The translations under genes were made by a program, and so were the position numbers. This document shows positions 17,208 to 59,375 of a DNA stretch of 64,000 nt, one piece after another. The DNA comes from Amphiscolops sp. MND2022. Lineage: Eukaryota. Under the pieces are notes generated by a model. That model was not told where the DNA came from. It saw only the letters and a program-made list of their open reading frames with translations, and searched no databases. Each line of letters starts with the position of its first letter. Position 1 is the first letter of the stretch. Location: positions 64,790,001 through 64,854,000 of the forward strand of contig OZ076415.1 in assembly GCA_964187785.1 (NCBI GenBank), written 5' to 3'.

Positions 17208-18149
17208 TATCTTGTGTTTGATATTCCGATGAATATTCAAGTGTTTTGCTAGGACTCAAAAACTGGCCAAGGGTATTTTTCAAACAAGACTCAAAATTGT
17301 AACTAAAAACTAACGTTCGCTGCAGGTATACAAAATTTTCATTGCCGCAAACTATACTGACCCGGCTTTCATGCACCATTAGAAAACTTATTATAGACAA
17401 GTTTTTTGAGTAAAAAGATTCGATATCCAGTTTATTTTTTTAAAAAACAGGTCCATTCATATTAATTACCTTTTCAACTTCTCTTGGAAAGAATCACGAC
17501 TTGTTTTGTCGATCTTAACTTTTGTGTATTCAAAAATTTTTCGAGAACAATTTTCCGAAGGCCGTAGCAAATTGAAAAATCACTCAATTGAAATATTTAA
17601 TCAATAAATCAAAATATCAGAATTCTTCAAGCGATGTCTTTTAGCTTATGCTTCGCTTGAAATATCTACCAACCGGAAAACCTAACCAAAATTCTCTAAC
17701 GATTCACTTTAGAAAATAAATGCAATTTGAGAAACTGTTCAAAACCTTCGAGCAGATAAAATTACAACAAGCGTGCTGTTCTACAAACGATTGATTAAGC
17801 CATCGCCTTTTTGAGCTCTTTTGATTGATTTTTAATACTTTGTTTTTTCTTTGAGTGTCTTCAAGTTTAAACACTGTGCGAATAAAACAGAGCTTTGAAT
17901 GAAGATACTCCAATGGACTAACCATCTCACGCTTTTTTCAAATTTGCAGACTTTATTTCTCAAAAACTTGAACCAATGAAGCAAGAAAGTTTAATCAAGT
18001 AAATTCAAACTTATATTATATATCTCAATTTTATATTGTCGGCCTCTTTTGATATACAAAACTTGAAAACAGCTTTTTCCAAACTCAAAACGTGTTAAAG
18101 GCATTCGCTGCTCGTTCGTTACTCGAATGTGAGTAAAAATCCATTGAAA

Positions 18150-26430: not shown

Positions 26431-26990
26431 AACAAGACGAGAACGTCTAAAGTCCGCGCTATATCTAAGGCTCAAAAAGCGCAAAATTTTTAAAATTGTA
26501 AAAGGGGGACCCTACGGGCTTTTTTAAAATCCAGTTTTTTGCAAAATATCAAAAAAATTGAAGGGGGACCCTTTGGAGACAAAAGTTTTCGAAAACAAAA
26601 ACAAAAAATGAGAATTTTGAACAGTCTCATAGTGCCGAAAGACTTAAAAGGGGATACCCTTTGGGCGCTTTGGCACTTTAGTTTGCTGCAAAATATCAAG
26701 AAAAACTTGAAGGTGGGACCCTTTGAAGGCAAAAAAAATCGAAAAAAAAGTCGCACAGTGCCGAAAAAAATTTGAGTGAAGGGACCCTTCTGTCTCGTCC
26801 GCTTTCGCAAATGATCGAAAAAGTTTCTGGCTAAAGCAAGGACTCGAACCCGTGACCGCTGGGTTCACCGTGAACCGAGTAAAGTCTGTACTAAAAAGTG
26901 GTACATACACGATGAGGTCTGTGGTCTGACAAGAAAAATTAGCCACTGTAGTAGTCGGGCACGTTTCACTAGAAAAGCGCCGACTAAAAA
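26431..26990 (-). mobile_element. HINE/DINE-1-like element
   Basis: AACAAGACGAGAACGTCTAAAGTCCGCGCTATATCTAAGG ... TAGTCGGGC..AAAAGCGCCGACTAAAAA. Confidence 0.7.
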
Positions 26991-39200: not shown

Positions 39201-42200
39201 GTTTTGGTTGTGAAAAGGTAAGAGTAGACCGGGGACAGGACTGCAGTTATCAGAAGAGCCAGGTAGTTCAGTAACAGGGCCAGAAAAGGGTCGTACTTTC
39301 CCTACAGAACAACACAAGCCATGTATACTAGAAACATCATAACTATCTATGGACGGGCATCAGGCCGAAATAATTGCTCTTTTCTGCCACCCCCCGCTCT
39401 ACCAAAAGTTTTGAAGATAAATTTCCTTAAACTAGCCTAACTAATTGTGAAACCTTCTTTCATAACAGTGCAGAGTGTTAACGTCTATTAGAAAAACTTT
39501 TTGTTTGAACAAAACGTTTTTCGCACATTCTGACTATAATCATGATTGACTTGAATACAAACAAGAAACCTTCAATTTTAGGGTGACAGTTCACAACGAG
39601 ATACAAACTTTGCCCACACTCTTTTTGCTTGTAAATTTGCTTGCACGCATTCTTGATGAAGAAATCAATAGCTTCCTGTTCCTAATCACAAAGAACAGTG
39701 AATATGAACATGCATGTTCATATTCACTGTTCTTTGTGATTAGGAACAGGAAGCTATTGATTTCTTCATCAAGAATGCGTGCAAGCAAATTTACAAGCAA
39801 AAAGAGTGTGGGCAAAGTTTGTATCTCGTTGTGAACTGTCACCCTAAAATTGAAGGTTTCTTGTTTGTATTCAAGTCTTTTTGTCAACAATATTTTCACT
39901 TATTTTCTGAAAAGAACTTGGTGTAGGGAAAAACAGAAAAGAGCCGAAATTATTTATCGAAAATATCGCTTCGGAAACGGCATCAATGCGATCAACGAAA
40001 AATAGGAAGCCCACAAAATAGAATTAATATTTCAAAACTTTGAATAGAATTAATATTTCAAAACTTTGAAGTAATACTTCAAAACCGCAATACAGACTAT
40101 CTTTTTAGTCGGCGCTTTTCTAGAGAAAAGAGTCGACTATAGTAATGGCTTTTCGTCAGTGTTTTTTTTCGATACACCTGAAGTGACCAAAATAGTTCTA
40201 CCCCAAAAGTTCTACAAAATTTTAAGAAGCCGCCAAATTGTACCCGTTGGCCCAAGGAACCTAACCAAAAAGGTTTCCCGCGTAAATACAATACCGGACG
40301 AGACCAGAGGGTCTCTCTTCCAGTTTTTTCGGCATTGTGAGACTTTTTTTCAATTTTTTTTCCTAAAAGGGTTCCCAATTCACCAATAGTTTGACATTTT
40401 GAAGTCCTTTTGGTATTTTTGAGCCTTAGATATGGCGCCGACTTGGGCCGGTCCCAGCTTGTTTGACTCGGTCTGGAAACTCTTCACAGACTGATACAGT
40501 TCAATTTGGATTTATCCGGTTTGGAATTCTTTCCGAAAAATTGCAATTGACCCAGAATCACAACAAAAAGAGCAGAGAGTTCCATTTCTTTGTAAATTGG
40601 CACCCATAGTTAGAACGAAAAATTGAAGATTGGCCTAATTTATAAACTTAAAGCTGCTAGTTAATTCAATCACCAAAATGCTTCGACTGAAGTTTTCATT
40701 GATTCGAGAAAAGTTTGCTTTATGTCTGCTTCATGTTTTTAGCGCTGGATAATTTAATGTTATTCCTGGTTAAAACATTCAACATTATAAGATGTCGGAG
40801 AATAAGGGGTAAACAAACCGGGAACGGCCAAAGTCGGCGCTATATCTAAGGCTCAAAATTGTAAAAAAGGGGGGCTTTGGGCTTTGTGAAAGACCAGTTA
40901 GTTGCGAAATATGAAAGAAATGAAGGAGGGACCCTTGGGAGATTTTTAAAAATTTCAGAAAAAAATTTTTTGTAGATTTTTGAACAGTGTCACACTGCCA
41001 AAAAATGTAAAAGGGGGGATCCTTTGAGATTTTTTGACATCCATTGTTTTGCAAAATATTGAGACAAATGAAGAGGGACCCTTGGGAGATTTTTAAAAAT
41101 TTCAGAAAAAAATTTTTTGTAGATTTTTGAACAGTGTCACACTGCCAAAAAATGTAAAAGGGGGGATCCTTTGAGATTTTTTGACATCCATTGTTTTGCA
41201 AAATATTGAAACAAATGAAGAGGGACTCTTTGGTGCAATCCAAAAAATTTCAAATAAATGTCTCATAATGCCGAAAAAATGTTGAAAAGTGAAAAACACC
41301 TAGATAGCGAAAGTGTGTTTTCGAAGTTGTGGACGTCGGTTTTGTTTCTTTTTGTGTTGGCAAGGTTCTGAGGTTTAGTGTAGTGAACCTTCGTAGTTCA
41401 TCAAGTTGTTGAACAAATGAACAAAAAAGTGGACCGTACGCGTCTAAAAAAACTACCCACTGTAAGAGTCGGGCTCGTTTTCTTCTGAAATGAGTCGACT
41501 AAAAATTATTCGGAAAGGTTTTGCTGGTAGAAATAAAAGATCAAAAACTGAAACTCAACGAAAGTCTGGTTTGAAAAAAACACTTGTGGACGTGTGAAAA
41601 TGGCAAAAAAAAAACAAGAAGCTTTGGCATCGCGCTTCGGTTCTCTTCAAAGGAAGAAGTAATTTGGAAAACGATAACCTTTCAGTTGAGCAACAACAGT
41701 TTCACAGATCAAATTCTTGTACGTGCCTCAATGTCAAGAACGTCTGCTACATGAAAATGTAGTTCTTACGTAGACATTTGCGGTGAATGTTTTTAAAAAA
41801 ATTATGGAAGAAAACATTTTTAACGTTATACAGCACTCCGTTGATGGGACTATCTAAGCAGATAATCATGGATAGATTCACATAGATCTGGCAGACCATG
41901 TGGTTTTCTACAAAAAGCACAAAGTATCGCTACCACATTCAACAGAAAAAAAAACAACGCAATGCTATGGAGAATTTAAAGAAAAATTATTTCTCCCAAA
42001 AGAACGAAGTTCTCGGTTAAGTTCAAATTTTTAATGAGACACATCACAAGTGGGACTTTTTATGAATCAAAAGTTTCGCACGGTTTGCCGGAACTATCAG
42101 AATATGAGTTTTAGAGCAACAAAACTTCATTAACATATTCCTGGAATTTTTCTCCAGTTGAAAAAAGCGGATGAATGTTCCAGTTTGAATGCTTCGGAAC

Positions 42201-45200
42201 ACCGTGAAATTTCGAACAGGGTGTCGCAGGCTGCCGCCTGTGATGGAAACAGCTACCAAGTGATGGTGAATGAGAACGACCTGAGATATATGCCAGGAAC
42301 ACTGCCACTTTAGGCCGCGTATACCGCTGATCTGCTGGGAAACTTAGTGCAAGACTTCTATTTTTTTTCACAAACAATTAGAATGTGAATTTATGCTATT
42401 ACGGACCGAAGGTCCACTGGTCTTAGTGTGACTTGTAGTACCAATTGCATTTTAGTATTCATTACATAGATATAGCATTCATTGTATTCTGTTTGTTGAT
42501 TTTATACGCTGCGCATGTACACTTTATATATATATTCACGTCTTTATGCTTGTGTATTCTACATGTAAACCAGTAGTGCAGAATGTATTAATTATCGATG
42601 AAATGTAGCTGTAATAATCAAGATAACTGGCAAAGTAAAGGAAACGCGTTCGAATTGTCCGCCGCGTTGGTCAATTCGAACGCGTAGTCCGCAACCTTAA
42701 TTAGCCAATCACATGCGAGCTTTCTTATTCACTTACTTGCTGGCCTTTGCGGCGACGCAAGTCATATTAGACTGCCGGTCCACTTATTGTCGGTGTATTT
42801 ACTTTGATGATTATTAATCTTAACTAAGTGCAATACTATTGGTGCATATAAGTATGAGCTCAGCACAAGTCTTGCTGTCATTAATATGAAAGGCGTACTG
42901 CCTCTTCCCCCCCATTTTCCTTCCTCTTTATCTATTTTTAGATCTAATACACGTAGAGATGCTAATTTTAGAATTACAGGAACATGTGACGTAAACTTCC
43001 CAGGGCCTTTTGCCCGTACTTGTGTCTATATTTAGTTTGACAGCATTACGTCATAGTGACGTTAGTATGTAAGTTGCTAATTTTAGTAACATGACTATAC
43101 ATATTACTGCATGTCATGATGCAAGGACTATAAATACGGGGACCACTAGTCCCAAGGGATGAATCTTGACGATTATTGATGATTACAAACCTACAACTCA
43201 CCGCTATCTATCACCATCAGTGTTCTAATCATTTTGAGACTACAAGTCAACCTTCGCTTTAGTAGACTGCTTTAGTGATATATCGTTCTGTTATTGTTTG
43301 AATACTCAGTTCAAGTTGGGATATTTGATACAAGCTCGAATATACTCTTACCTGAGCAAATATTTCTTCAATGCCTTCTACTAGAAAGCAAAGAGCTAAG
43401 GAAAGACGCTCTAGGCAATTAGACATCATGTCTGATACAGAAAACTTAGACGTAATGCTTGGATCATATCCAAGAAATGAATTAGGAAATGACTCTGATA
43501 GGGATGGTGAAATAGACCTAGGGTCAGATAGGACTAGAGGAGACCCACTGCAAAATAGTGAGGATTTCAGGTCACTTTTAAACTCAAACAGTAAAGAAAA
43601 TAGTGAATCGACGGTTGAGACTATGAGGCTCGTTAATTCTGAGATTACAAAGAAAATTGATGAACTGAGAAGAGAACTTAATTCTCAGCTGGTTGATGTC
43701 ATTAATTCAGCAATCACTGAAAAGGTTTTGCCTGATATTAGAAACTTGGTTTCCAACCAAAATCCAGTGTTTCGGGAAGAAGTGGACCAGAGGTCCAGTG
43801 GACTTAACAGGACCACCGAAGCGAAATTCGTTAAAAACGCTTGGAAAGGTAACTCAAAGCTTAATATGGCAACCAGTAGTCGACAAGACTACTTTAGGAG
43901 AAATTCAGAGAATTCTCAGTCTAGTGACGATGGTCATGAAGAAGACATTATGACCAATAGTCACGACATGGTGACAGGAGCCAAACCTACCCCTCGTACG
44001 GTTCCTGAATTCCTTACTGGACGGCCCATGCATTCCCGCGAAGAAACACAAAATTCCCATTCCCCACGAATTCAAACCTTAGAAAATGTCCCTCCGGTTC
44101 AGGAGACAGACGTCAACGATGGTTCAGACCCCATTAGGCGTCTTGCAGATGTGCTGGTCGGAATGAACAACAAATCATCAACGCAGACACTGATGGTAAG
44201 ACCTGTCAGCACTACTACATTGACGTTCGATGGCAAATCGGAGAAATTTGAACTCTTCGAAGATCTTTTCCATACTATGGTAAAGATGCAACCGGAAATG
44301 ACCGAGACCATGAAAATCAACCATTTCCACTCTTTGTTGAGGAAGAATGCCCTACAAACTTTCCGCAACATCAGCACCGCTAATAGGCAGACCTTGGAAG
44401 ATGTACTTGCAGTCTTCAGACGCAAATACGTCAAACCAGAATCCCAAGCAACTGCCAAACACAAATGGCACAAACTCGTGTTTGACCCAAACACTATGAA
44501 ACTGCCCGATTTCCTTGAAGAATTGAATCAGGGTGCAGAAAAAGCGTTCGGTGAGAACGCTCAAGCTATGATAGACAGCCTATTGTACGCCAAATTGCCT
44601 CCAAAACTCAAAAGATCCGTCAATATGGCAAGACTTGAAAATGCATCGTACGAGGAAATTGTCACTCATTTAGAACGTGAACTTGAGCTTAATGGACTTG
44701 AGGGAGGTGACGACATTCCAGTACCTACAATGTCCACTGCCCCTACAGCAACACGACCGGGCACTGGCCTCCTTTCATCGGGCATTGATCCCAATATCAC
44801 TTGCAATTATTGCAAAAAACCTGGCCACGTCAAAGACGACTGCAGGAAACTCAAACGAAAGGAGGAACAAAGGCGCAACGACGGACAGGATACTAAAAAA
44901 GAATATCCTAAATGCCCGACTTGCGGCAAAACAAATCACCCGGCGGAACGGTGTTGGAAAGGCGCCGGAGCCCACCTCAAGCCCAAGAACCTCAAACTGG
45001 AGGACGCCAAACAAGACGAAGCGTCCCCTGGACAAAACGAGACCAAGGATAAACAATCCACCTCAATATTAAAAAACTCAAAAAACTAGATTTGCCACGA
45101 CTCCAATTTAATGGAAAGTTACGAATTAGACAGTATATAATCTCTGACCCTTCTACCGTATTTTATATTGAATATTATTCTTCACTAAAGAAAACCTCAT

Positions 45201-48200
45201 CGGCTGACTGGCAGCAGCAAATGAGAAATACTCCTACTCAATTTTGCACTTCGGACCACAGGTCCGACAGACTTACCTCGACTACGGACTATATTCGATC
45301 CCTTCCTCTAATACCTGACTATAACCCTTATTACATTGACCCCGACTACGGCATTGACCCCTACTGGGACGCTCAAATCTACAATCAACACGAGCTGCAA
45401 TTTTACGCAAACTTTAACAAACCTCAAACTGAAATTGAACCCGACTGTCCCATGACAGACAGGGCTCTAAACCATACCTTGACCATAGCTCTAGTAGACC
45501 CCTGGCAAGCAAACCCCAATTCCTGTGTCCTACCAACACAGGAAGAACCAGACACCAAATTCAATTCTTTTGGACCACAAGTCTCTCTGACGTCAGCCGT
45601 CGAGGCAAGATTTGTAAACACACTGGTTACCAGAAATGGCGAGCCAGATTATGTTCCGCTCACAACCAATCTCGGACTCAAATACAAAAGACGTATGCTC
45701 TATTTTCCCATGGATTTTGGCGAACTTACATTAGACGGCCTTGTAGACACGGGTGCCCTATCTAGTGCAATCCCCGAAGCTGATCTACGTAAAATCCGAT
45801 TATTAGCCCCTCAGTCTATTGTCAAAGAGGGCCCAGCACCCAACTTCCAGATAATGGTAGCTAATGGGCAGCTGGAAACTCCGAAGAGCACCGTCGAACT
45901 TAAATTTGAGGTCGGCGATATAGAATTTCACGAAATTTTCATTGTAATGGAGAAACTAACAAGTCCGTTGATTGGCCTTTCATTCTTGCAACGAAACAAC
46001 ACCATACTGGACATGAGACAGGGAGTTCTAAATTTCCCATTTTTCTCCATGCAATTGAAAACAGCGGATCATAAGTACACAAACGTCATGGAGCCTATCT
46101 GTACACAGGAGGACATCACAATACCACCAAATGATAGACACCTAGTCACGTTAAGTTCCCAGATGTACGATGATACCACCGTTACTGGCATATTACAACC
46201 GAGCAATGCCCTCACTGAAGATGGAGACATCGCCTTTTGCGCGGCACTGGTCACATTGACCTCCGGTCAAGTTGAAATTCACCTGAATAACTTTACCGAC
46301 CACCCTTATACTCTCAAGAGAGGTTCTCACGTCGCCAACTTCTCTGTCATGACCCCAGGACAGATGAAGTATGTCAAACCTATAGATCCGGTGACCACAT
46401 GGCACCTTTTGCAGGACAATCCTGAAAATGCTGCATTTTACGTTAGCAGCTTGATTAAATCTTCTAAGCCAGAAGATTTTCGGGAAAACTATTGGTTTCC
46501 CACTCCGGAAGACCCCGGGGATCCACAACAACATACGCCGATACAAAAGCGCATTCTCACCGAACTCCTGAATCTACAAGAGCTAGAGAAGCTCAATCCT
46601 CAGGATGACCCTGAGTCCAGACGACGATTCCTGGCCAACTTCGATTGGACAGATTCTATGCTGCAATCAGATGAGATTACACGCATTGAAAATTTGCTAG
46701 TCGAATTCCATGATATATTCGCTAGACATCGATTCGACATAGGCATGAACGAGGAATTCAAGGTCAAATTAACCCCAAAAGACGATTCCCCGGCCTATAG
46801 TCAAAGTCTACCAACGCCTATTAACCTCAAGGAAGATATCCTCGTAGAACTGGCGCTATTACAACGATATGGGATCATAACAACTCTCCCATTTTCCAAA
46901 TATGCTAGCCCGAACTTTGCCCAAAAGAAACCCAATGGCAAATTGAGATTGCTGGTCGACCTTCGCAAGATTAACAATCTCATTTCGGATGATTACATTA
47001 ACAATAATCACCCCGTCAGTACACTGACCGATGCAGCCCAACATATGGCAGGCAAAAAACTATTTTGCAAACTAGATTGTTCGCAAGCATACCACTGCTT
47101 GCAGATGGCGGACCAACGGTCCATTGAAATGTTAGCGTTCAATTTTGCCAGCAGGACATTTGCTTACCGCAGGTTGGCGCAAGGACTCAGCCGTGCTTTG
47201 TCAGCCTTTTCTAGCTTTATGCGCGAATATCTTGACAAAGTTATTAAGGCTGACCAATGTGCTCAATATGTCGATGATATCGGCATTGCTGCAAATGACG
47301 CCGAACAACTCATAAAGAACCTGCGGGCCACTTTCCAATGCATCCGCGAAGCGGGATTGAAGCTCACAATGCACAAATGTCATTTCGGAGCGACAGAAAT
47401 CGACTTTTTGGGTCGAACGATCACGCCAGTCGGAGTACGTCCACAGCGACCACGAGTCCAAAATTTCCTAGAAAACACGAAATTCCCGAAATCAAAGAAA
47501 GCACTGCAGAGATACCTGGGATTTCTCAACTACTATCGTAACTATATTCCCAGGCTATCAGAGAGACTAACACCATTCTTCAAATTATTAAAGAATGATG
47601 AAAAAGTCCTAGTAACACCGGACCTATTGGAGAAATTTACCGATATCAACAAAGCACTTGACCGCTGTTGTGAATTAGCACTTAAACAGCCGCTACCGAA
47701 CAAGCAAATAGCCCTAATGACCGACGCCAGCTTTATGGCCGCTGGGTACGCAGTCCTAATTGAGGATGATCCACAAGAAAAATATACTTCAACGAGGAAG
47801 GCGTTTGCTCCGGTAGCTTACGGGTCAAAGACCTTTAGTCCCGCACAATTGAAAATGTCCATTTATGCAAAAGAATTCTTAGCCATATTCTTTGCGTTCA
47901 AGGAATTTGGACACATCTTTTGGGGGACGCCAAAGCCGGTAATTATACTGACCGATAACAAATCCGTCACGCGTTTTTTTCAAACAAAGATAATACCACC
48001 AACGTTGTGGAACGCATGTGATTACGTTATTCAATTTAACTTCACAATAGCACACATTCCCGGTAAAAACAACACAGCCGCAGACTACTTATCACGCCTA
48101 GAAATATCACCAAAAGAGAAATTGATTCTTCGCATCAGAGAAGATATTCCCACTACGCCAATTGAACTTCACGTCCAATCAGCAGGGATCACAGAAGAAG

Positions 48201-51200
48201 AACAAATCTTCTATACTGACGATGAAGATGAGACAGAAGAGCAAATCTGGCAAAGGAAGAAAAAATCACGAGACAATCCTTCCAATCAATTACCGGATAT
48301 TTCTTTTCAAAAATTTACCACTCATCACAGCAATTATCAAAAATTACCCATTTGTCAAAAACTAGCCAATACCAACACTGTGACTATAGAGCAAAACAAT
48401 GACGTTATACTACAACAACTTAAGCTCAAAATTCAAAAAGAAGAGTATTCTGAAACAATCTTGATACAAGATACAAGATATCAGCACTACCTACGCCAAC
48501 TAGACCGACTGTCCATTCAAAACGAAATCATCACGAGGCAGTATTACGACGAAACTGGCACTGTCAAATACAACCAAGTGCTCTTACCAAAACACCTAGT
48601 AACTGAATTATTAGAATCCCTTCACGGGAAGGCCAATCGCCATCCGGGCATTGCAAAAATGTTACAAGAAATTCGTTCCAAATATTATTATCCTGGAATA
48701 GCGAAAATCGTCCGCAAGTGGGTTAATGGATGTGAAACCTGCATAAAAGATAAAAGAACTCCAAATGAGTTAATAACTCCTGAGCTCCTCAATTTGCCAG
48801 AGTGGACTTTGGGTCCAGAAGACGCTATGCAAATAGACCTATTACCGAACCTCCCGCCGAGCGGAGGCTACGAAAATATTATTACTGCCATGGACGTTTT
48901 TTCACGTTACCTGTTCGCTTACCCAGTTACTGATGCTTCAGCTGCAAATACCGCTAAGGTCATTATCGACATCATGACCAAACATACGTATTTGCCGACG
49001 ACTTTGATTACCGATAAAGGATCAGCCTTCACATCAAAGTTAGTAGCTGAAATTGCGCAAATTTTGGGCATTCAAATTAAATGTGCGACGACGAAACACC
49101 CACAGACCATAGGAAAGCTAGAAAGAACTCATGCCAGTCTTAAGACTAACCTCAAAATGGCCTCAGGGGAGTATAGACGTCAGTGGCACAAGTACTTACC
49201 GTTAGCAGTCCTAAATTACAACACGTCCTACCACTCGACGTTGGGCTGCGAACCATCAAGGATATTTCATGGCCGCATACCGTACAATATTTTAGACCAT
49301 AAATTGGGGCTCAACCCAAACCCACAGGTCCTTCCCACCACGGACTTTGCTGAGGAATTCCAACGTAGATCACAGGTTTTGATTGATTCCACAAAGAAAA
49401 ATATTATGCAGTCTTATTTGAAGTACAAAGAATACTATGACCGAAAGGCCAAAGCAGCACCTTTGAAACTCAATGATTATTGCTTCATTCTACAACCTAT
49501 AGCTGACCATCAAGGATCAAAAATCCCATTTCGCGAATTCCGTTGGATTGGCCCTTACATTATCGAAAAAGTTTTACCAAACGATAATTATATAGTTCGC
49601 AAACTCAATTCCAACAAAACGCAAATTTTACACAGAATACGTCTCAGAAAATATGAGCCTAATACAGACTTACAGGACGTTCGCCCAGAAGGGAATTTAC
49701 AGCCAGACGATGAAATTGTCATTCCCCAAGATGATCTCTACGTAATCACGTGGGAAACGAACTTTGAGGACTTCGCGTCCACTCGACGTCAACCGACCTA
49801 CGAGCAATCAACTGAACGACCAGAAATTACGAGCGGCGAAGATACTAACTTCGACCAGCCAGATCAGATCTTGACCGATGTGGACCTACAGTCCACTAGA
49901 CATGACGAGACGGAAGAAACTCTTCCTGAGCGAATCATGCCCGATTCCGATAATGACTCAATTACTGGTGAGGAAACTTCATCAGGGGGGAGCGATACTA
50001 TCGTGCCCGAAGTATCAGAAAGCGAAAACGACGAAATGATTGTAGAAAATGAAAGCCCTAGAGGAGGGAGATATAACCTCCGTCCGAACCCTACCCCTAA
50101 TTACTCAGAAGAATACAGATACTAGTCAGAACATTTAATTACTACGTCCCAATTTTCTCTCTCTGCCCTTGAGGACATGTATTCTTTACTTGGGACTATT
50201 TTGACTTCACTTTATGACAATTAATAAGGTGCCGACAAACTGACTTAGCGACGAATAATAAAGCCACAAGCAACATTGGCAGAACAAAAGAAAATATGGA
50301 TAAATAGTTTACAGTCTAAAGTTCATATATGTGCACATTGTGTACAATTAGTCTTTACTGCCACACTGACGCAGACTCTTAGCAGTCTGGACCAATTCGG
50401 AATCTGACAAGAGATGAGTAGGACGGACATTCTTCTTAGGGTACTGTAGGGTACTGGGGGACTGCTGGACTGTGACAGTACTGGAAGCGCCCACCTTGCC
50501 AGCTTTGCTCTGAAGTCTGCGTTCAGGATCCAACTTCGACAAAATCTCAGTCCTCCCGAAATTGTCCAAACCCGACCACGGGTCATACGTGTCGCCAAGC
50601 GCAGTGCGACCGAAAGTAGACTCCATTTCGAGGAATTCGGAGATCGAGGCATCGCTGGTCACTGACTCAACTGGATTAACAGCTTGGCTAAAGAACGATT
50701 GCACTGGCAGCACTATGTCCACTAGCTTGCTGGTAGGATCATCCGTGTTGACAGAGCCGAACTTGACTGTCGGGAGATCTCTAAAAGGCTCATCTATGCA
50801 GAGACAAGCCAACTTGAAACAACTAAACAACAATGGACGTGTAGACAGAGTTGTTTGGCCCATGAGGAAATCAATTGTATCCTTGATCAATAGTGTAGGT
50901 TGATCGAACTCTGCAAATTTAACGCGCAACTCGTCGACGAAGGACAGGTACTCTTCATGTGCTGGGGCCTCTTGTTCTTGGGAAAAATACCCACGAAGAC
51001 GGAAGACGGTAAATAACTGACCGAAGCATTTCGTGGCCAGAGTGAGAGGCAACTTCAAGAGGATTTCCAGGTCAAAGCTGGCCAAACCTTGGGCGATGTT
51101 GGTGGTGAAATTGAAGTGACTACGCGTCTCTTTGAACAGATGAGTCACGTAACTCCTGGCCAAACGTCCAAATTCTTCCTTAGCCTTCTCTTTCAATGTG

Positions 51201-54200
51201 TCGATTGACGTCTTCTCTCCTTTCTGTTCATGCTGCTCAATCTCTGCTTTCAACTTGCAGGCATGGTCAAGTTTCGCTCCAAATTTGGTTCTGCTGAGAA
51301 ACACGGGGACGCTGAGGGCCAGAGCAGTTGTGGTATCCAGGTCCAAGATACTCGCGATGTCTTCTTCAGCAGGCAAAGCAGTGGGGAGAACAACGCGCTT
51401 AGCCAATTTGCGAAGGTAGAGACAAAGCTGTCGGAAGGAGTAGAAGGCCCTGTCTCGCCGGCCACTGAGACTGAGTGAGAAGTTGGTGGTGTCTGAAACA
51501 GTGAATCAACCATGAAACCAGATTATGCCTTAAAAGACCTATGGTCCCATTGTCGTAACTAGGACTAAGAGGATTTATTTTGGGACAGTCAAGCTTAGAT
51601 TGGAAATTCGACAAGGCGCAGCCCAGTTCCAGTCAGATGCATCCTATTGAATTATTATGAAGCCATGTGGAAACCAATGTGCAAGGAGAATTAGAGTACT
51701 AACAATCGCGGACAAGCTTCCCAAAGAACTCAAGTCTGCAAGGAAAGAAGTCATCGTGAATGATAGATCGTTCGAAGTTTTGGGGCTGAAAAGAAATGAA
51801 AGCCATCGAGATTTGCCCTACTAGGGACTATGAGTCTAGCTGTCGCAAATTGACCAACCTGGTGTCTGACTCCCTGCATTTGCTGTTGAGGTGAATGCTC
51901 GGAAAGGTAGGTGATCACCGTTTTCCAGTTAGCCATCAACTCCTGACACAATTTTGGGATTGTGGACACGTCAAGCTTGCAAGTTTTAGTGGCCTAAATT
52001 GAAAACCCCACGTCAAACCGGACCAAGCTTCGGGCGGTACTAGGCACGTAGACTGAGGGACTTACCTTAGTCAACTCAGGGGTGAAGAGAGTCCATTCCA
52101 TCTCTAGACTTCCACTCAGGCAGACAACCAAGTACTGTAACACTGAAAAGAAGTCAATGCGTCCAAACACGGAGAAACTGTCTTTGTGCATCAACTTCTT
52201 GATCGCAATCTCGTCGAAAGTAGTTGGTCGCTGTACCCCACGTCTGGTGAGTGGGGACCGATCTAACAGATGGACTAGGCCATATGTAGCCCCAGAGCAG
52301 CACACTAGATCAGCCTCAGCAGATATCGCTGCAAGAAGGGTAGACACAAGGCTGACTTCGGCTGATGTTTGTCCACTGGCCCTGCCGGTTCGCAGTAAGT
52401 AGACCCGGCACAATTTGTCAGCTTTCCAGAACCTGACGTGAAGCAAGAGGAAAACCCCCTGTGGTTCGAATTCTACAGAGAATTGTCCGGACGTCAGGAT
52501 ATCATTGCCAATGATTGGAATGATTTGTGTGAATAGATGATGGAACAACACCTTAAACACATCTTTAGATTAGTACGAACCGGAACATGTGCCCACTCAA
52601 GAACTATTGTTCAAATCATGGACTGTGACTTATCAAATCTAGTCAAGCTTGCATGATATAGGGATAGGACTAGAAGTCAATCAGACGTGAAGAGACTACT
52701 TACTGAGAGTCTAGTTGTGCTCCAGTCGATATCACTGGTGATGGCCTGATGATTCAGTGCAATGCCAATTTGTTGCCAGAGACCACGCAGGACTTGGACG
52801 TCTCCAGACAATGGTAAGAAACAGCCGAGCACAGAAATTTGCAGTCTGGCACGATTTTGCGGTGACGATGCCATATAATCCACGCCTGCCATTGCCTCGT
52901 CGTAGAATGGCAACTTCTCCCCAATGTCTACTAGTTCGCAGTTAATGAAGTGAGGCAGTTCCAGCTGGAGTTGATAATTGGAGAGCACTTTACCATCTTG
53001 ACCTCTCACTTGGTATCTGCGTCGCTTAGTAAGGGGGTCTTCAATAGTGAGGTACTCATACCTCCAGCGCTGATCTTTACGCAGATGACGCTCCGTCGCG
53101 AAATGTCGCAGGATTTCCTTTGGACCCTTTGCACGGATTGAGACATTGCACTTGCAGATCTGGCAGTAGATCTTGTGCTTGTTCCATTTCGGATCAACTG
53201 GCCCAGACACGAAAGTTCTAGTCCAAGGCATTGTCTCGAAGTACTCCTCCTTCATCACTCGGCCTATTCGTCTCCTGGGTCGTGCTTGGCCCCTAGGTCG
53301 AGTGCGAGATGAAGTTTGTCTCCGGGCTTGGCGTTGCTCGTTAATAGCCTCCTGTCTCACGTTGGCGAGGGTTTGAGCCCCAGGGCTGGACACGGCAGGA
53401 GAATGTGGGTCAGTCTCTAAGTCTACCTGTTGATTGCTGGCAGTGGTCGGAGGAGCAGGCATCGCTACACTTGATTGGAAGTCCGGTTGGGATTCAGCCT
53501 CACTGGTCATGCCTGAACTTGCGCCGCCTCTACGTGTGGAGTAGGTAGCTACGGAATCACTTCCGATATCTGTGTCAGTATCATGGCCAGACATCGAAGG
53601 AACACGCCTTCTAGAAGCAGTTTTTGCAGGACTACCCAAGTTCAATCGGCTCGCCCGTTCCACTACGCTGCTAAGCATCTCAAAAGACGCTCGGGCACTT
53701 TCGTCTGCTACAATTCTGAGGATGCTGGTAATTTGATCCTGATTTAGCGCAATGACAGGGTGTCCTGGATCAAGGCAGATAGGGTTTGTTTCTGTGAAAC
53801 ATTGTTTGATGATAACCCTGCTGGTACCTGACAACGGTGGCGGATCAGTGATGGGTGGCAAATCGGCAACGTTTGAATCATGACTAGATTCATCGCGGCA
53901 AGAAATCTCACGAACCTTTGCCGGGCAATACAGCGCTTGTCCCAAGGTAGACCTAGCCATAGATCCGGTGTCGGTCTCCATCTCAAAGCAAGAGTCTTCA
54001 TCTGTTTGGTACCGGTAGTCCATTGGCCCTTTGCTGACTTGCGGATCACCAGACCCAGAAGCATCGATCTCTTGTCTCTCTTCCTGTGCTCCTTGAAGGT
54101 TGGGAGTAACTTGCGGCTCCTCAAGGACTTGTTCCACTAGCCCTATGTTAGCAGGCTGAGACGGGCCCTCAGTGGTAGTAGCAACAACCCCGACTTCAGG

Positions 54201-57200
54201 ATTAGATGCCATCAGGCTTTGGTCAACTACTTTGCTTGCTGACGTAAGGTCCTGTCTTCCGATGGTGGTGTTATTCGTCCCTTCTTGCGAATCGGATTTG
54301 TCCAGGAAGACGACTCTAGGGACGCTTTCTGTAAGTTGGACTTCGGGGATCATCTCATTCAGCGCAGGAGTAACAGCAACCAACTCACTCACACTTGACT
54401 TTGCCTCAACAGGAATCTCAGTTGCACGACTAGCGGGATCTTGCTCAGCGCTCTCAAGCAACTCAGCTGTACGCCTGATGTAGGCTTCGCAGCTTTCAGT
54501 GTCCGTATTGGAAGACAGCTCAACTATAGATCTTATGTCCGTTGGCGACCCTCTGTTCTCAGACTCTAACATCTGTCCAACTGTTGGGGAGTCAATTTCC
54601 ATCTGTTCGGTGACGTTTTGTTCTGGTTGGCCGTCCATTTCTTTGCCTAAACGGAAAGAAATAAATTTTCGCGATCCACTTCCGTTAAAGAAATCCATCT
54701 TATCGCGTTTGAAAGACTTTCGAAAGCAAGCTTATTATTTGTTCATACCTATGGTTGAATATTTCACGATGGAGGAAGTGAAAACTAGTCAATGGGAAGC
54801 CCTGATCAAGCTCGAAATTGACAAAATAAGTTGAAAGAACCAACCTGATGTTTATCCAAATGGAGAACAGAATTGGTGGAGCAAGACGTGGCTGACTGAA
54901 AGGATTCTTGGTCTGTCCGAATCGGAGTAGTGACGCGAAGGATGAGCAGACTGAAACAAAGTCGTAAGACGGCGGATACTGTTGGAAGGGTGACCTATGC
55001 CAATTAGACTGCTAGTCCAATTAGTAGAATCTCGAGGAATGAACAACTTTGGACGGGAGTACTGTCAACAAGTTGGAATACTCGTAGAAGAATAGTTCAA
55101 TGTTGTCTAGGAGAAACAAGAAGGGTGAACTAGATGAAGAATTCTGAACCGAGATTGAAGTCTCAAAAGTGGACTCTACGTCGATCTAGGGACAATTAGA
55201 CCAGTAGTCCTGGAAACGAAGTCCAACGAGAAGATGTAACTAGAAGAACTATCCAAGCAGGAAATATTTTGTGCAGATTTGGGGATCTAAAACTGCTGTT
55301 GAATGATAGAATTAGAATTGGGAATGCAAAATGTAACAAAGGATTAACAATTTGAAAGTCGTACTGTGAACTGTGAAAATTAGCAAACTGGTTTACTATG
55401 CTTTACGGCAATTAGACTGAAAGTCTCACTTACAAGTTTTACTTCTTACCGTTCAACTTGACTCTCAAGACTGATTATTACTCAATCGTATTTTACGTTT
55501 ATTTCATTTACATCAAAGGACGTCGTGGCAAAATACAAGTCATTTATTATTACCAAAGCTATTAGCTCTTTTAATTACCTATACACTATGATCTTCAGTG
55601 TTACAGAACCTGCCAGTGATGTACATTCAGCAATCATTTCTTTTCCATTCCTTTGTTCCAGTATTAGAGTTACCATCATTACCATTATTAATTTCATCCA
55701 TTTATGCCATTTTACCATTTTCATTCAAATTCATTCAGAATTATTTATTCATTTATCAACACGCTCTGATTGGACAGTTGGTCTTTGCTAGCCGCTGAGA
55801 CCGACGGTCTTTGATGACACTTCACTAGTGTTAATGAGTGATGATAAACAATCTCATCACCCATTGTCACCTCTTCAATAGTTAATACAACCACTTGAGA
55901 TCAAACTCAAGCACTTATCAACTTTACAAGCGGCTGATCATCAAAACGAAATTGAGAAGGGAACCCGCTTAATAAGGAAATGTTAAGAAACCAAAGAGGG
56001 CTGCAGGGAAACTTTCCCTAACTTATTTTCCCGCGAATTTTCGACCCTCTGACCTAAGGTCGATCAGCCCGAGGTAGCCATTCTTCTGAATCTCAATCTA
56101 CAAATCAGCAGCTCACTTTCATACTCAAGAATTGCTAAGAAAATCTTACTAAAGAGATTTCAAACAGATATGTCTCTACAATTTGCAGTAGAAGATTTAA
56201 TTAGCCCCTTGGTTAGCCTGTCTTATCTATCCTCAGAGGAAGAAGACATGGACGTGGACGATCCACAAAAAGCCCCAGACGAGAAAGGTTATGACAGCGA
56301 CATAGAAGTGATCGCCTGTTACAGCGAGGCTCAGTCCACTCGACCATTGGGGATAGCGGGACGTGCCATGACCACTGAATTCACGGACGATGATGACTTA
56401 ACGCTACTGGAGGAATTGTATGGCAGGTCAATAAAGACGGACACAGAGCCCCCTAGCGACCTTGTAGACCAGATATTGGGCATTCACCCTCCTAGCTATT
56501 CCAGAAGACTCAGTCAGGAGCGACCCATTGCTGAGTGTGCAAGAATTAGCCCAATTCCAGACACCCCACTATCTCCACCTCCGCACGAGCAAGGGTGTAA
56601 TGTCAATAACGCTGGCAACCCGTGGTCAGATGATGACTTCCCTTATCAGCCCAAGAACGCACATATTACTGGGATTGCCATAAGCAACAGCGGGGTGTGT
56701 GGGCTGCCGAACCAAGTCGCCTTTGGGGACTGCATAGTGTGTGGGAAGTCTTTTGAAACAATACGAGAGGAGATCACCTTCAATTTTTTGGAGCAGACTC
56801 ACCTCGTGGGTGAGACGTACAATACCCGACTCAGACGAAGAAACGCCTTTCAGGCAGGAATGCTTGCAGGCTCGTTTACTGTCATCCCCCGGGGAGTGTC
56901 GCAGGCTGCCGCCTGTGATGGAAACAGCTACCAAGTGATGGTGAATGAGAACGACCTGAGATATATGCCAGGAACACTGCCACTTTAGGCCGCGTATACC
57001 GCTGATCTGCTGGGAAACTTAGTGCAAGACTTCTATTTTTTTTCACAAACAATTAGAATGTGAATTTATGCTATTACGGACCGAAGGTCCACTGGTCTTA
57101 GTGTGACTTGTAGTACCAATTGCATTTTAGTATTCATTACATAGATATAGCATTCATTGTATTCTGTTTGTTGATTTTATACGCTGCGCATGTACACTTT

Positions 57201-59375
57201 ATATATATATTCACGTCTTTATGCTTGTGTATTCTACATGTAAACCAGTAGTGCAGAATGTATTAATTATCGATGAAATGTAGCTGTAATAATCAAGATA
57301 ACTGGCAAAGTAAAGGAAACGCGTTCGAATTGTCCGCCGCGTTGGTCAATTCGAACGCGTAGTCCGCAACCTTAATTAGCCAATCACATGCGAGCTTTCT
57401 TATTCACTTACTTGCTGGCCTTTGCGGCGACGCAAGTCATATTAGACTGCCGGTCCACTTATTGTCGGTGTATTTACTTTGATGATTATTAATCTTAACT
57501 AAGTGCAATACTATTGGTGCATATAAGTATGAGCTCAGCACAAGTCTTGCTGTCATTAATATGAAAGGCGTACTGCCTCTTCCCCCCCATTTTCCTTCCT
57601 CTTTATCTATTTTTAGATCTAATACACGTAGAGATGCTAATTTTAGAATTACAGGAACATGTGACGTAAACTTCCCAGGGCCTTTTGCCCGTACTTGTGT
57701 CTATATTTAGTTTGACAGCATTACGTCATAGTGACGTTAGTATGTAAGTTGCTAATTTTAGTAACATGACTATACATATTACTGCATGTCATGATGCAAG
57801 GACTATAAATACGGGGACCACTAGTCCCAAGGGATGAATCTTGACGATTATTGATGATTACAAACCTACAACTCACCGCTATCTATCACCATCAGTGTTC
57901 TAATCATTTTGAGACTACAAGTCAACCTTCGCTTTAGTAGACTGCTTTAGTGATATATCGTTCTGTTATTGTTTGAATACTCAGTTCAAGTTGGGATATT
58001 TGATACAAGCTCGAATATACTCTTACCTGAGCAAATATTTCTTCAATGCCTTCTACTAGAAAGCAAAGAGCTAAGGAAAGACGCTCTAGGCAATTAGACA
58101 TCATGTCTGATACAGAAAACTTAGACGTAATGCTTGGATCATATCCAAGAAATGAATTAGGAAATGACTCTGATAGGGATGGTGAAATAGACCTAGGGTC
58201 AGATAGGACTAGAGGAGACCCACTGCAAAATAGTGAGGATTTCAGGTCACTTTTAAACTCAAACAGTAAAGAAAATAGTGAATCGACGGTTGAGACTATG
58301 AGGCTCGTTAATTCTGAGATTACAAAGAAAATTGATGAACTGAGAAGAGAACTTAATTCTCAGCTGGTTGATGTCATTAATTCAGCAATCACTGAAAAGG
58401 TTTTGCCTGATATTAGAAACTTGGTTTCCAACCAAAATCCAGTGTTTCGGGAAGAAGTGGACCAGAGGTCCAGTGGACTTAACAGGACCACCGAAGCGAA
58501 ATTCGTTAAAAACGCTTGGAAAGGTAACTCAAAGCTTAATATGGCAACCAGTAGTCGACAAGACTACTTTAGGAGAAATTCAGAGAATTCTCAGTCTAGT
58601 GACGATGGTCATGAAGAAGACATTATGACCAATAGTCACGACACAGGGTAGTCTCTGGTATTTTTGACGAACGATGACAGAATTGTGCCATGGCAGAGAT
58701 CAAAGAATCGAATAAAAATAAACTGTTTTCGAATTTGCTAAGGCCACAGTGGTGGTTTTCAATAATTTAGCAGAACAATTTGTTCTACCGCAAACCGAAA
58801 CACTCTTAGAGAAATTTAGAGCGACTTTCTCTTTGGCCAATTTTTTGTCATTTAGTATCCATAAATGTTTCTACAGATGAACAGGTCCTGAAAACGGCAT
58901 CCCGTAAGTTCAAAAACAGCGAAAACCTTTAAAAAACACGTGGACGCGAAGCAGGTGAAACAGTGGGGTGCAACAACAACAAGTTCCATATGTCTAATAC
59001 CAAAAAAGGAACTTTTTACAAACCACCCACCTTCCCCAATCCCCCACCCTCTTTCACACACACACACGCAGAAAATTCAGATTTTCAACATGTGGGGAGA
59101 TGGTTTTAGGAAAAACATGTCCATAAAAAGTTGTTAAAATAAATGTTTCCTTAGAACGTTTGAGTAGCTGTTGGTTTCACGATTCAGTGAGGTATCCTTA
59201 CTCAGCTCTGTTGTTACTCCATGGATGAGGGGGTGAGGGGGGTGATACTTGCCTGGAAATGAGGGTATATGTGAGGTCCAGCTGCAGAGATTCCTTCAAT
59301 CATGCTGTAGAGGAAGAAGATACCGACGCCCAGGAAAAGAACACTGCGGAAGTCGCAGTAACTGTCATTTAACAT
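27223..59375 (-). CDS. UNC-93-like / MFSD11-like MFS membrane protein, 8 exons: 59375-59253, 39301-39193, 37645-37498, 36254-36124, 35340-35213, 30934-30678, 29015-~28708, ~27449-27223
   Basis: All junctions are phase-compatible. The spliced peptide aligns by eye to MFSD11-type helices: VLFLGVGIFFLYS (TM1), GFNAGVMWTSVGKAITVHSD (cf. GIAAAVLWTAQGNCLTINSD), LLVGIGEIV (cf. IFIGIGEIL), FFGFYDCIIETEIY (cf. LLGFGDSCFNTQIY), AFAVYQF (cf. AFAIFKF). The last junction is least certain. Confidence 0.8.
29657..30141 (-). mobile_element. HINE/DINE-1-like element
   Basis: AACAAGCCGGGAAGGGCAAGGGTCGGCGCCATAACTGAGG ... GAAGCGCCGACTAAAAA. Confidence 0.65.
31960..34400. repeat. Diverged tandem array, ~185-bp period
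   Basis: Motifs such as TTTTTGTCAAA..GACTTCGTGGATTGGAATG..GGGTCAACAA..TTGTCCA..GAGATAA..AAATTGACACC recur at roughly 180-190 bp spacing (e.g. ~32463, 32649, 32840, 33025). Confidence 0.7.
35005..35157 (-). mobile_element. tRNA-derived SINE, same family as 11405-11590
   Basis: Minus strand TGGTGTAGTGGTTAGAGCATTCG..GTTCGAATC followed by the shared body. Confidence 0.75.
37193..37322. repeat. 22-bp minisatellite (GAAAACGTTATATCCGAACTTT) x~6, next to a HINE-type end at ~37410-37446
   Basis: Head-to-tail units seen directly. Confidence 0.9.
38328..38985. mobile_element. TIR-bounded MITE-like element, CTTGCAAG-rich family
   Basis: Left ATGCATTCCTTACAAGGATCTTGCAAG vs reverse complement of right ATGCATACCTTGCAACGATCTTGCAAG; AT-rich non-coding interior. 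Confidence 0.55.
39548..39877. repeat. Perfect 330-bp palindrome, 165-bp arms, no spacer
   Basis: Centre ACATG|CATGT at 39712/39713; ends GACTTGAATAC...GTATTCAAGTC; both strands give the same translation in the ORF track. Confidence 0.97.
40102..40463 (+). mobile_element. HINE/DINE-1-like element
   Basis: TTTTTAGTCGGCGCTTTTC ... GATATGGCGCCGACTTGGGCCGGTCCCAGCTTGTT. Confidence 0.7.
40812..41505 (-). mobile_element. HINE/DINE-1-like element with internal 147-bp tandem duplication (40928-41227)
   Basis: AACAAACCGGG..AGTCGGCGCTATATCTAAGG ... GAGTCGACTAAAAA; GGGAC motif at 40928, 41075 and 41222. Confidence 0.7.
42222..43968 (+). repeat. 5' LTR (1747 bp)
   Basis: Direct repeat of 56897-58643; TG...CA ends with TGTCG/CGACA inverted termini. 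Confidence 0.97.
43129..43135 (+). promoter_or_regulatory. Candidate LTR TATA box
   Basis: TATAAAT about 240 bp upstream of the gag ATG, downstream of several TGACGT/ACGTCA motifs. Confidence 0.5.
43371..45089 (+). CDS. gag: Gag, 572 aa, with the first 199 codons inside the 5' LTR
   Basis: Retrotransposon gag core (FDGKSEKFELFEDLF...) and two CCHC knuckles, CNYCKKPGHVKDDC and CPTCGKTNHPAERC. Confidence 0.95.
   Translation: MPSTRKQRAKERRSRQLDIMSDTENLDVMLGSYPRNELGNDSDRDGEIDLGSDRTRGDPLQNSEDFRSLLNSNSKENSESTVETMRLVNSEITKKIDELRRELNSQLVDVINSAITEKVLPDIRNLVSNQNPVFREEVDQRSSGLNRTTEAKFVKNAWKGNSKLNMATSSRQDYFRRNSENSQSSDDGHEEDIMTNSHDMVTGAKPTPRTVPEFLTGRPMHSREETQNSHSPRIQTLENVPPVQETDVNDGSDPIRRLADVLVGMNNKSSTQTLMVRPVSTTTLTFDGKSEKFELFEDLFHTMVKMQPEMTETMKINHFHSLLRKNALQTFRNISTANRQTLEDVLAVFRRKYVKPESQATAKHKWHKLVFDPNTMKLPDFLEELNQGAEKAFGENAQAMIDSLLYAKLPPKLKRSVNMARLENASYEEIVTHLERELELNGLEGGDDIPVPTMSTAPTATRPGTGLLSSGIDPNITCNYCKKPGHVKDDCRKLKRKEEQRRNDGQDTKKEYPKCPTCGKTNHPAERCWKGAGAHLKPKNLKLEDAKQDEASPGQNETKDKQSTSILKNSKN
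43969..43980 (+). other. Primer binding site, tRNA-Leu-like
   Basis: TGGTGACAGGAG directly after the LTR; 11/12 match to TGGTGTCAGGAG, the complement of the vertebrate tRNA-Leu(CAG) 3' end (from recall). Confidence 0.7.
45071..45086 (+). promoter_or_regulatory. Two tandem A-AAA-AAC -1 frameshift heptamers at the gag/pol junction
   Basis: gag frame ttA AAA AAC tcA AAA AAC TAG; pol is in the -1 frame and open across both sites. Confidence 0.85.
45092..50125 (+). CDS. pol: Pol polyprotein: protease, dUTPase-like remnant, RT, RNase H, integrase
   Basis: LVDTGA (PR), YVDDI (RT), MTDAS/EFLAI/LTDNKS/ADYLSR (RH), H..H..CETC plus QIDLL/TDKGSAF/KLERTH (IN), GPY motif; no chromodomain. Confidence 0.98.
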   Translation: MPRLQFNGKLRIRQYIISDPSTVFYIEYYSSLKKTSSADWQQQMRNTPTQFCTSDHRSDRLTSTTDYIRSLPLIPDYNPYYIDPDYGIDPYWDAQIYNQHELQFYANFNKPQTEIEPDCPMTDRALNHTLTIALVDPWQANPNSCVLPTQEEPDTKFNSFGPQVSLTSAVEARFVNTLVTRNGEPDYVPLTTNLGLKYKRRMLYFPMDFGELTLDGLVDTGALSSAIPEADLRKIRLLAPQSIVKEGPAPNFQIMVANGQLETPKSTVELKFEVGDIEFHEIFIVMEKLTSPLIGLSFLQRNNTILDMRQGVLNFPFFSMQLKTADHKYTNVMEPICTQEDITIPPNDRHLVTLSSQMYDDTTVTGILQPSNALTEDGDIAFCAALVTLTSGQVEIHLNNFTDHPYTLKRGSHVANFSVMTPGQMKYVKPIDPVTTWHLLQDNPENAAFYVSSLIKSSKPEDFRENYWFPTPEDPGDPQQHTPIQKRILTELLNLQELEKLNPQDDPESRRRFLANFDWTDSMLQSDEITRIENLLVEFHDIFARHRFDIGMNEEFKVKLTPKDDSPAYSQSLPTPINLKEDILVELALLQRYGIITTLPFSKYASPNFAQKKPNGKLRLLVDLRKINNLISDDYINNNHPVSTLTDAAQHMAGKKLFCKLDCSQAYHCLQMADQRSIEMLAFNFASRTFAYRRLAQGLSRALSAFSSFMREYLDKVIKADQCAQYVDDIGIAANDAEQLIKNLRATFQCIREAGLKLTMHKCHFGATEIDFLGRTITPVGVRPQRPRVQNFLENTKFPKSKKALQRYLGFLNYYRNYIPRLSERLTPFFKLLKNDEKVLVTPDLLEKFTDINKALDRCCELALKQPLPNKQIALMTDASFMAAGYAVLIEDDPQEKYTSTRKAFAPVAYGSKTFSPAQLKMSIYAKEFLAIFFAFKEFGHIFWGTPKPVIILTDNKSVTRFFQTKIIPPTLWNACDYVIQFNFTIAHIPGKNNTAADYLSRLEISPKEKLILRIREDIPTTPIELHVQSAGITEEEQIFYTDDEDETEEQIWQRKKKSRDNPSNQLPDISFQKFTTHHSNYQKLPICQKLANTNTVTIEQNNDVILQQLKLKIQKEEYSETILIQDTRYQHYLRQLDRLSIQNEIITRQYYDETGTVKYNQVLLPKHLVTELLESLHGKANRHPGIAKMLQEIRSKYYYPGIAKIVRKWVNGCETCIKDKRTPNELITPELLNLPEWTLGPEDAMQIDLLPNLPPSGGYENIITAMDVFSRYLFAYPVTDASAANTAKVIIDIMTKHTYLPTTLITDKGSAFTSKLVAEIAQILGIQIKCATTKHPQTIGKLERTHASLKTNLKMASGEYRRQWHKYLPLAVLNYNTSYHSTLGCEPSRIFHGRIPYNILDHKLGLNPNPQVLPTTDFAEEFQRRSQVLIDSTKKNIMQSYLKYKEYYDRKAKAAPLKLNDYCFILQPIADHQGSKIPFREFRWIGPYIIEKVLPNDNYIVRKLNSNKTQILHRIRLRKYEPNTDLQDVRPEGNLQPDDEIVIPQDDLYVITWETNFEDFASTRRQPTYEQSTERPEITSGEDTNFDQPDQILTDVDLQSTRHDETEETLPERIMPDSDNDSITGEETSSGGSDTIVPEVSESENDEMIVENESPRGGRYNLRPNPTPNYSEEYRY
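50348..54638 (-). CDS. Antisense five-exon gene encoding a hAT-transposase-derived protein (~1260 aa), probably catalytically dead; exons 54638-52704, 52551-52066, 51993-51859, 51785-51704, 51492-50348
   Basis: Four GT-AG introns (152, 72, 73, 211 bp) with matching phases 0,0,0,1 join the ORF fragments into one frame. Order of motifs: TTF/BED-like zinc finger (EEYFETMPW..YCQICKCNVSIRAKGPKEILRHFATERH), RNase-H-like core (QFSVEFEP..LLLHVRFW), ELMANWKTVITYL helix, RKLAKRVVLP, dimerisation-like RPLLFSCFKLACLCI. Confidence 0.85.
56170..56988 (+). CDS. Accessory ORF3, 272 aa, acidic and non-env; crosses the PPT and ends 92 nt inside the 3' LTR
   Basis: ATG-initiated uninterrupted ORF preceded by a branch-like TACTAA and acceptor CAG at 56165-56167; CxxC motif CIVC; no signal peptide or TM segment visible. 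Confidence 0.75.
   Translation: MSLQFAVEDLISPLVSLSYLSSEEEDMDVDDPQKAPDEKGYDSDIEVIACYSEAQSTRPLGIAGRAMTTEFTDDDDLTLLEELYGRSIKTDTEPPSDLVDQILGIHPPSYSRRLSQERPIAECARISPIPDTPLSPPPHEQGCNVNNAGNPWSDDDFPYQPKNAHITGIAISNSGVCGLPNQVAFGDCIVCGKSFETIREEITFNFLEQTHLVGETYNTRLRRRNAFQAGMLAGSFTVIPRGVSQAAACDGNSYQVMVNENDLRYMPGTLPL
56891..56896 (+). other. Polypurine tract (short GGGGAG)
   Basis: Purine run directly before the 3' LTR TG. Confidence 0.65.
56897..58643 (+). repeat. 3' LTR (1747 bp)
   Basis: Same length as the 5' LTR and no difference found in the segments compared; followed by TSD CAGGG. Confidence 0.97.
58046..58651 (+). CDS. 3' LTR copy of the gag N-terminal 199 codons, ending 2 codons into host flank (201 aa)
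   Basis: Identical translation to gag residues 1-199, then TG*. Confidence 0.6.
   Translation: MPSTRKQRAKERRSRQLDIMSDTENLDVMLGSYPRNELGNDSDRDGEIDLGSDRTRGDPLQNSEDFRSLLNSNSKENSESTVETMRLVNSEITKKIDELRRELNSQLVDVINSAITEKVLPDIRNLVSNQNPVFREEVDQRSSGLNRTTEAKFVKNAWKGNSKLNMATSSRQDYFRRNSENSQSSDDGHEEDIMTNSHDTG

Follow-up and report, generated by a model that had tools for sequence, protein, structure and literature searches.

The window analysed here, a 64,000-nucleotide stretch of Amphiscolops sp. MND2022 DNA (contig OZ076415.1, positions 64,790,001 to 64,854,000), was found to carry a complete Ty3/gypsy LTR retrotransposon (Table 1). The host is a eukaryote with a genome of 1.07 Gb. The element has the domain order protease, RT, RNase H, integrase, TG..CA LTRs, a short target-site duplication and a primer-binding site at 43969, directly after the 5' LTR. 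Scoring of 40 of 783 candidates gave 33 full-length matches at 99-100% identity, the present copy counted, and the family is therefore young. Two accessory genes were identified. The second of them lies on the sense strand, runs divergently from the first and gave no known domain in the domain search. The first is a hAT-derived gene placed in antisense between pol and the 3' LTR, as is typical of an aORF.

Table 1. Features of the retrotransposon and of the hAT-derived gene that it carries (positions in the window)
Feature	Position	Strand	Remarks
Ty3/gypsy LTR retrotransposon, full	42222..58643	+	16.4 kb; 5-bp target-site duplication CAGGG on both sides
5' LTR	42222..43968	+	1747 bp, TG...CA, identical to 3' LTR
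CpG-rich imperfect palindrome in U3	42644..42685		17-nt arms; candidate cis site
gag	43374..45089	+	starts within the LTR; zinc knuckle close to the C-terminus
pol	45053..50125	+	protease, weak dUTPase-like segment, RT, RNase H, integrase
hAT-derived gene, exon 5	50348..51492	-	helical insertion domain, hAT C-terminal helix, new C-terminal extension; stop 50350-50348
hAT-derived gene, exon 4	51704..51785	-	gene model
hAT-derived gene, exon 3	51859..51993	-	helical insertion domain begins; RW motif missing
hAT-derived gene, exon 2	52066..52551	-	RNase H-like core (b1-b2-b3-helix-b4-helix), without catalytic Asp
hAT-derived gene, exon 1	52704..54698	-	N-terminal low-complexity region, basic patch, C2H2 finger, N-terminal domain
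Conserved non-coding boxes 5' of ATG	54715..54850	-	candidate antisense promoter or autoregulatory sites
Second accessory ORF	56170..56988	+	~272 aa; ends within the 3' LTR
3' LTR	56897..58643	+	LTR pair identical

The hAT-derived gene is encoded on the minus strand from an ATG at 54698 and comprises five exons with ~1280 codons. In the initial annotation it had been placed at 50348..53230; the stop end at 50348 was retained, but the start lies ~490 codons further upstream and four introns (52703-52552, 52065-51994, 51858-51786 and 51703-51493) interrupt the coding sequence. The eight splice sites are kept across 24 diverged loci, with GT donors in 24, 20 (GC in the other four), 23 and 23 loci and AG acceptors in 24, 22, 22 and 24, and identity in these loci is 0.59-0.83 in the exon bins versus 0.33-0.45 in the intron bins. 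Moreover, the splice junctions are confirmed by precise intron losses, namely of intron 3 in L063, intron 2 in L151 and intron 4 in L151, L152 and L154. From these losses it appears that a spliced antisense mRNA once existed and was copied back, which suggests that the accessory mRNA may meet the reverse transcriptase of the element. Eight of nine near-identical copies are free of internal stops, and none of the nine has an exon indel. Exon 1 begins with ~476 acidic and Ser-rich low-complexity residues, which precede the basic patch and the finger and contain two islands (residues ~1-25 and ~295-350) conserved among 76 sequences.

The C2H2-type finger was correctly described as intact and reads CxxC...H...H at 53165-53085. 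Its four ligands are kept in 34-35 of 36 aligned rows, it is the most conserved part of the protein and its profile matches the fingers of donor hATs (E 3.2e-6); a search of the finger gave no zf-BED Pfam match. The finger, RNase H core, helical insertion and C-terminal helix follow each other in the collinear order expected from hAT descent, and the hAT origin of the captured gene is supported by these sequence comparisons. The claim that the fold has been kept stood well for the helical insertion and the C-terminal half and weakly for the RNase H core; it did not stand for the last part of the hAT C-terminal domain, which is replaced by ~100 unrelated residues. PHSN-type hATs (e.g. loci L208, L247, L255 and L188) and Hermes share the finger type, the domain order, the helical insertion domain and the C-terminal helix with the captured gene. 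In the non-gap rows of the PHSN-type hATs the two catalytic Asp (19/19 each), the CxxH (20/20 and 20/21) and RW (23/23 and 22/23) motifs and the final Glu are intact, the last in 35/35 rows by the selection of the rows themselves. The captured gene, in contrast, is without the triad, CxxH and RW, and has added a 476-residue N-terminal and a ~100-residue C-terminal extension. According to the available text of PMC10368747, the BED finger of Hermes has no catalytic role; it binds short subterminal repeats.

The proposal that the captured transposase is catalytically dead was borne out by the 36-row alignment, in which the D-D-E triad was not found while the references keep all motifs. The first catalytic site reads FSVEFEP, as reported earlier, at 52482-52462 in exon 2, and in the profile alignment to intact hAT transposases the first catalytic Asp is matched by the Glu of FSVEFE. 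This column holds Glu in 22 rows, Val in five, Ala in four, Leu in one and a gap in four, with an Asp one position later in eight. The second site had been read as CSGA; this motif, without Asp, is present at 52299-52288, whereas its register had been assumed, and a structure model and an alignment disagree on it. A low-confidence model (pLDDT 51.5) places it at the end of strand 4, as had been supposed, and hhalign on the strand preceding CxxH; neither register has an Asp at the second catalytic site, and the end of strand 4 carries Asp in 0/36 rows. The reported lack of ERxFS also held, none being present after the last conserved helix (50815-50771). The profile alignment stops exactly where the PHSN..ER motif of the donors starts, the catalytic Glu motif in exon 5 is replaced by other sequence, and PxS..ER.FS occurs in 0/67 exon-5 sequences. 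The final-Glu column is occupied by L, Y, F, M, S or P without a conserved acid. The CxxH and RW motifs kept by the references are absent from the captured gene throughout the 36-row alignment, and the C-terminal PF05699 domain was detected in 0/49 members and 0/20 of a second set. In the initial annotation the catalytic residues of Hermes had been numbered D180, D248 and E572; this numbering was not found in the portion of the Hermes paper text that was searched. Loss of the catalytic triad is hence supported by the alignments. An altered metal-dependent nuclease or strand-transfer activity could be imagined from the Glu or the shifted Asp at the first site, a Glu on the following helix kept in 33/36 rows and other invariant Asp residues, but the lack of Asp at the end of strand 4, of a conserved acid at the final-Glu position and of CxxH and RW, together with Val, Ala or Leu at the first site in ten rows, makes it highly improbable. 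An active hAT transposase is ruled out by the missing triad, CxxH, RW, PF05699 and element ends.

Searches around the gene gave no tandem or terminal inverted repeats beyond chance-level pairs of 15-27 nt, in agreement with the earlier remark that TIRs are lacking, and in the absence of element ends an 8-bp TSD cannot be placed. The gene was followed in 44 loci picked for diversity from several hundred matches. In each of the 24 loci at 53-90% and each of the 20 taken from families at greater distance it is antisense and tail-to-tail with the gypsy pol, at the same position down to 49% pol identity. It is therefore element-encoded in 44/44 sampled loci, as had been proposed, and not a fixed low-copy host locus. 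Compared with two sister-family copies, the core has dN/dS values of 0.041 and 0.042, close to the 0.03-0.04 of integrase, and the N-terminus has 0.16, which shows that the factor is under selection; in the remaining nine comparisons synonymous sites have reached saturation and the protein is conserved. The idea of a nested, still active hAT insertion, or of a passenger that evolves neutrally, has nothing in its favour except the hAT ancestry. With no TIRs, one position in all loci and a protein conserved past synonymous saturation, this reading is refuted and its probability is practically nil.

Phylogenies of the gene and of RNase H/integrase, built for 34 loci (L041 and L146 were left out for short pol), have 17/31 splits in common and patristic distances correlating at 0.89, with three conflicts among splits of support >=0.95. 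At the deepest split pol is 49-55% identical and the gene 19-25%, and the gene tree is 3.5 times longer (11.1 vs 3.2). A single ancient capture followed by vertical descent fits best. Taken together, hAT ancestry, triad loss, gene structure, fixed position, co-descent with pol and purifying selection are regarded as almost certain. The strict co-descent would also agree with an integration cofactor, in which the dead transposase would tether, protect or import the pre-integration complex by binding cDNA LTR ends or chromosomal targets; the end-holding scaffold is kept along its whole length, and the domain search of pol gave no chromodomain match for the integrase. However, the TIR-contacting CxxH and RW motifs are gone, the gene evolves ~3.5 times faster than RNase H/integrase, and it would be expressed from a separate antisense transcript outside the polyprotein, and we consider such a role unlikely.

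Two candidate cis regions may be relevant to a regulatory function. In the sister family no other island of U3 is conserved as well as the palindrome. Its identity is 83% in L041, L042, L044, L045 and L046 and 71% in L056, and it was not found in two LTRs at greater distance (L062 and L146). As a hairpin it scores z -3.94. Both zinc fingers and RNase H folds that are catalytically dead are able to bind RNA, and a stable hairpin, if transcribed, would suit an RNA-level accessory factor, like Rev or CERV of Cer1, that binds genomic RNA for export or protection. An animal Ty3/gypsy precedent, a spliced-mRNA accessory protein needed for export, is described in the accessible part of PMC10309623. 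The ancestor was, on the other hand, a dsDNA-binding protein, whose finger type is still matched (E 3e-6), and an RNA-level role is judged very unlikely. The second region consists of boxes at 54849-54837, 54810-54800, 54778-54767 and ~54726-54717, three of which are kept in 25, 24 and 25 of 29 aligned rows and show no codon periodicity (0.77/0.77/0.83). This pattern is consistent with an internal antisense promoter, which may be common to the second accessory ORF in a head-to-head arrangement. They could also be autoregulatory, as in a self-limiting or competitive factor that represses its own element outside a germline window, or rivals, or whose antisense RNA modulates small-RNA silencing. 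The anatomy of the protein fits a repressor equally, and antisense transcription can work via dsRNA according to the available text of PMC7264820. Against this, dN/dS of 0.04 indicates that the protein and not the RNA alone matters, there is no overlap of the gene with gag-pol, the clade is both young and abundant, and a genome search with the exact pattern, by which absence is not proven, found no PHSN-type hAT; self-limitation is thus distinctly unlikely.

The reading that we prefer, with about an even chance of being right, is that the hAT-derived protein regulates the element by binding DNA in the nucleus. Its layout resembles that of transcription or chromatin factors: an acidic Ser-rich region with islands is followed by a basic patch, then by the finger and the body of the dead transposase. 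In an ancestor of the Ty3/gypsy clade, a hAT transposase gene would have been taken up in antisense, most simply by a hAT insertion whose ends were later lost. Because the gene is antisense, its introns would survive the copying of genomic RNA. An internal promoter of its own would drive the gene to give a spliced mRNA, and the protein would have lost cutting activity without losing the zinc finger or the scaffold, and would have added at its N-terminus a long acidic disordered region bearing conserved short motifs. The nuclear, sequence-specific and probably oligomeric protein may bind DNA of the element itself, at the LTR and/or the internal promoter, and recruit host chromatin or transcription proteins, by which the element would stay expressed. 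We infer expression, DNA binding, oligomeric state, target and direction of regulation, and the role of transactivator or anti-silencing factor, as first proposed, is likewise putative.

The initial annotation had further compared the protein with VANC of the Mutator-like VANDAL transposons, and this proved to be its weakest part. The likeness lies in an element-encoded accessory protein that diverges between families; to our knowledge, VANC is not transposase-derived. VANC depends on a short tandem motif present in high copy in its element and acts by way of demethylation (available text of PMC6719617), whereas TRF found no tandem array in 42222-58643, no multi-copy motif was found in the element, in which dispersed degenerate sites may still be present, and CpG is not strongly depleted. 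Observed/expected CpG is 1.02 over 277 kb of the genome, and CpG transitions are 0.96-1.76 times as frequent as other C/G transitions in 11 copy pairs (12 tried), the ratio being 2.7 among rare variants in the youngest family (23 vs 39 events, from loci that overlap in part). The protein is therefore unlikely to serve in removing DNA methylation. In a host with little DNA methylation, a counter-silencing factor would act against piRNA/H3K9-type silencing, of which no TE-encoded antagonist was known according to the accessible text of a 2019 review (PMC6719617). That the protein is a lineage-wide counter-silencing or transactivating factor, a class II transposase domesticated by a class I element rather than by the host and diversifying per family, is possible though somewhat unlikely; if true, it would have helped the clade to reach hundreds to thousands of copies.

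Plant Ty3/gypsy antisense aORFs (Grande gene23, RIRE2, Retand TRP28/PF04195) occupy the same site between pol and the 3' LTR in the same orientation and are present in most copies, and an own promoter and a nuclear role have been proposed for them (available text of PMC7264820 and PMC11963269). Their origin is given as unknown in PMC7264820, where the lack of TE similarity is said not to support origin from an inserted TE. In comparison, the present gene has whole hAT transposase ancestry, ~1280 codons, four introns and no TRP28 domain, and its origin is identifiable, unlike that of the common antisense extra genes of LTR elements, whose origin and function are unknown. The accessible text of PMC9289625 describes sharing between class I and class II elements for the plant mobile domain PF10536, common to Gypsy elements and MULE DNA transposons. 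That domain is accessory, whereas in the present case it is the transposase itself. ZBED and DREF, which we take to be domesticated hAT transposases, are fixed host genes that keep hATC, as are DAYSLEEPER/SLEEPER, whereas the present gene is mobile at hundreds of sites and its PF05699 motif is lost. Like DAYSLEEPER/SLEEPER, as described in the available text of PMC3499209, it has kept the finger, lost transposition residues and ends, and come under purifying selection. With lost catalysis under purifying selection it resembles the host-domesticated hATs, and the captured gene may work like them.

Captured ORFs are known in animal LTR elements (accessible text of PMC5408684, PMC6431247 and PMC10309623). 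The DEDDy and GDSL ORF3s of bdelloid LTR elements (PMC5408684) and CERV of Cer1 (PMC10309623) are similar as extra spliced-transcript genes in animal Ty3/gypsy elements; as far as these sources go, they are not transposase-derived, and the bdelloid enzymes keep their catalytic residues whereas the captured gene does not. In the literature searched, whose coverage is incomplete and excludes Repbase, no LTR element was reported to keep an entire hAT transposase as an accessory gene. In the present gene, clearly, one mobile element has domesticated the core enzyme of another, and the hAT ancestry gives the testable prediction of finger-mediated binding to element DNA. It has been kept under selection as strong as that on integrase across a deep radiation, with pol ~50% identical at the extremes.

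Single introns of the antisense hAT-derived gene were found to be precisely missing in the loci L063, L151, L152 and L154, which belong to different lineages. The phase-0 position of intron 1 is the same in the most distant clade, where the donor is found in 7/7 and the acceptor in 6/7 of the loci shown. The intron 2 donor is GC in four sister-family copies (L041, L046, L047 and L048). Database searching has also provided the homologues P0136, P0141 and P0054, and in P0136 introns 3 and 4 are apparently missing. Two of these homologues, P0136 and P0054, were compared with the host genome and matched it at only ~29-31%, so the hAT-derived gene family is present in other hosts too. The host genome itself carries Ac-type and other hAT transposase ORFs which are apparently intact (L097-L102, L170, L172 and L175), and none of these is close to the captured gene. 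L255, one of the PHSN-type hAT transposase references, is a metagenome sequence (L255:260-2959) with an OTU protease domain at its N-terminus (PF02338, E 3.5e-14).

The product of the element's second accessory ORF is acidic in its N-terminal half, and its C-terminal part is conserved and contains Cys. No Pfam match was obtained for it; its homologues were found at 14 loci with identity as low as ~25-29%, and the most distant clade has an acidic ORF at the equivalent position.

The gag start lies ~600 bp within the LTR, hence ~200 gag codons are present in each LTR and the primer-binding site falls within the gag frame. Between protease and RT, a weak dUTPase-like match (window ~46100-46350; E 0.002, below the cut-off) lies at the position that PMC6431247 gives for elements of planarians, rotifers and fungi.

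Outside the element, the palindrome listed in the table may be real or may be an assembly artefact. Tandem arrays of 13, 22, 147, 196 and 247 bp are also present in the window.

Accessory, LTR-borne and repeated features with their window coordinates
Feature	Position	Strand	Remarks
gag-coding LTR portions	43374-43968, 58049-58643		
Second accessory ORF	56170-56988	+	Ends within 3' LTR; divergent to hAT-derived gene
Perfect palindrome	39548-39877		330 bp; arms 165 nt, no spacer
Non-coding dispersed repeat family	5395-5914, 16849-17210, 24451-24822, 26431-26990, 29656-30101, 40125-41504	both	Several diverged copies
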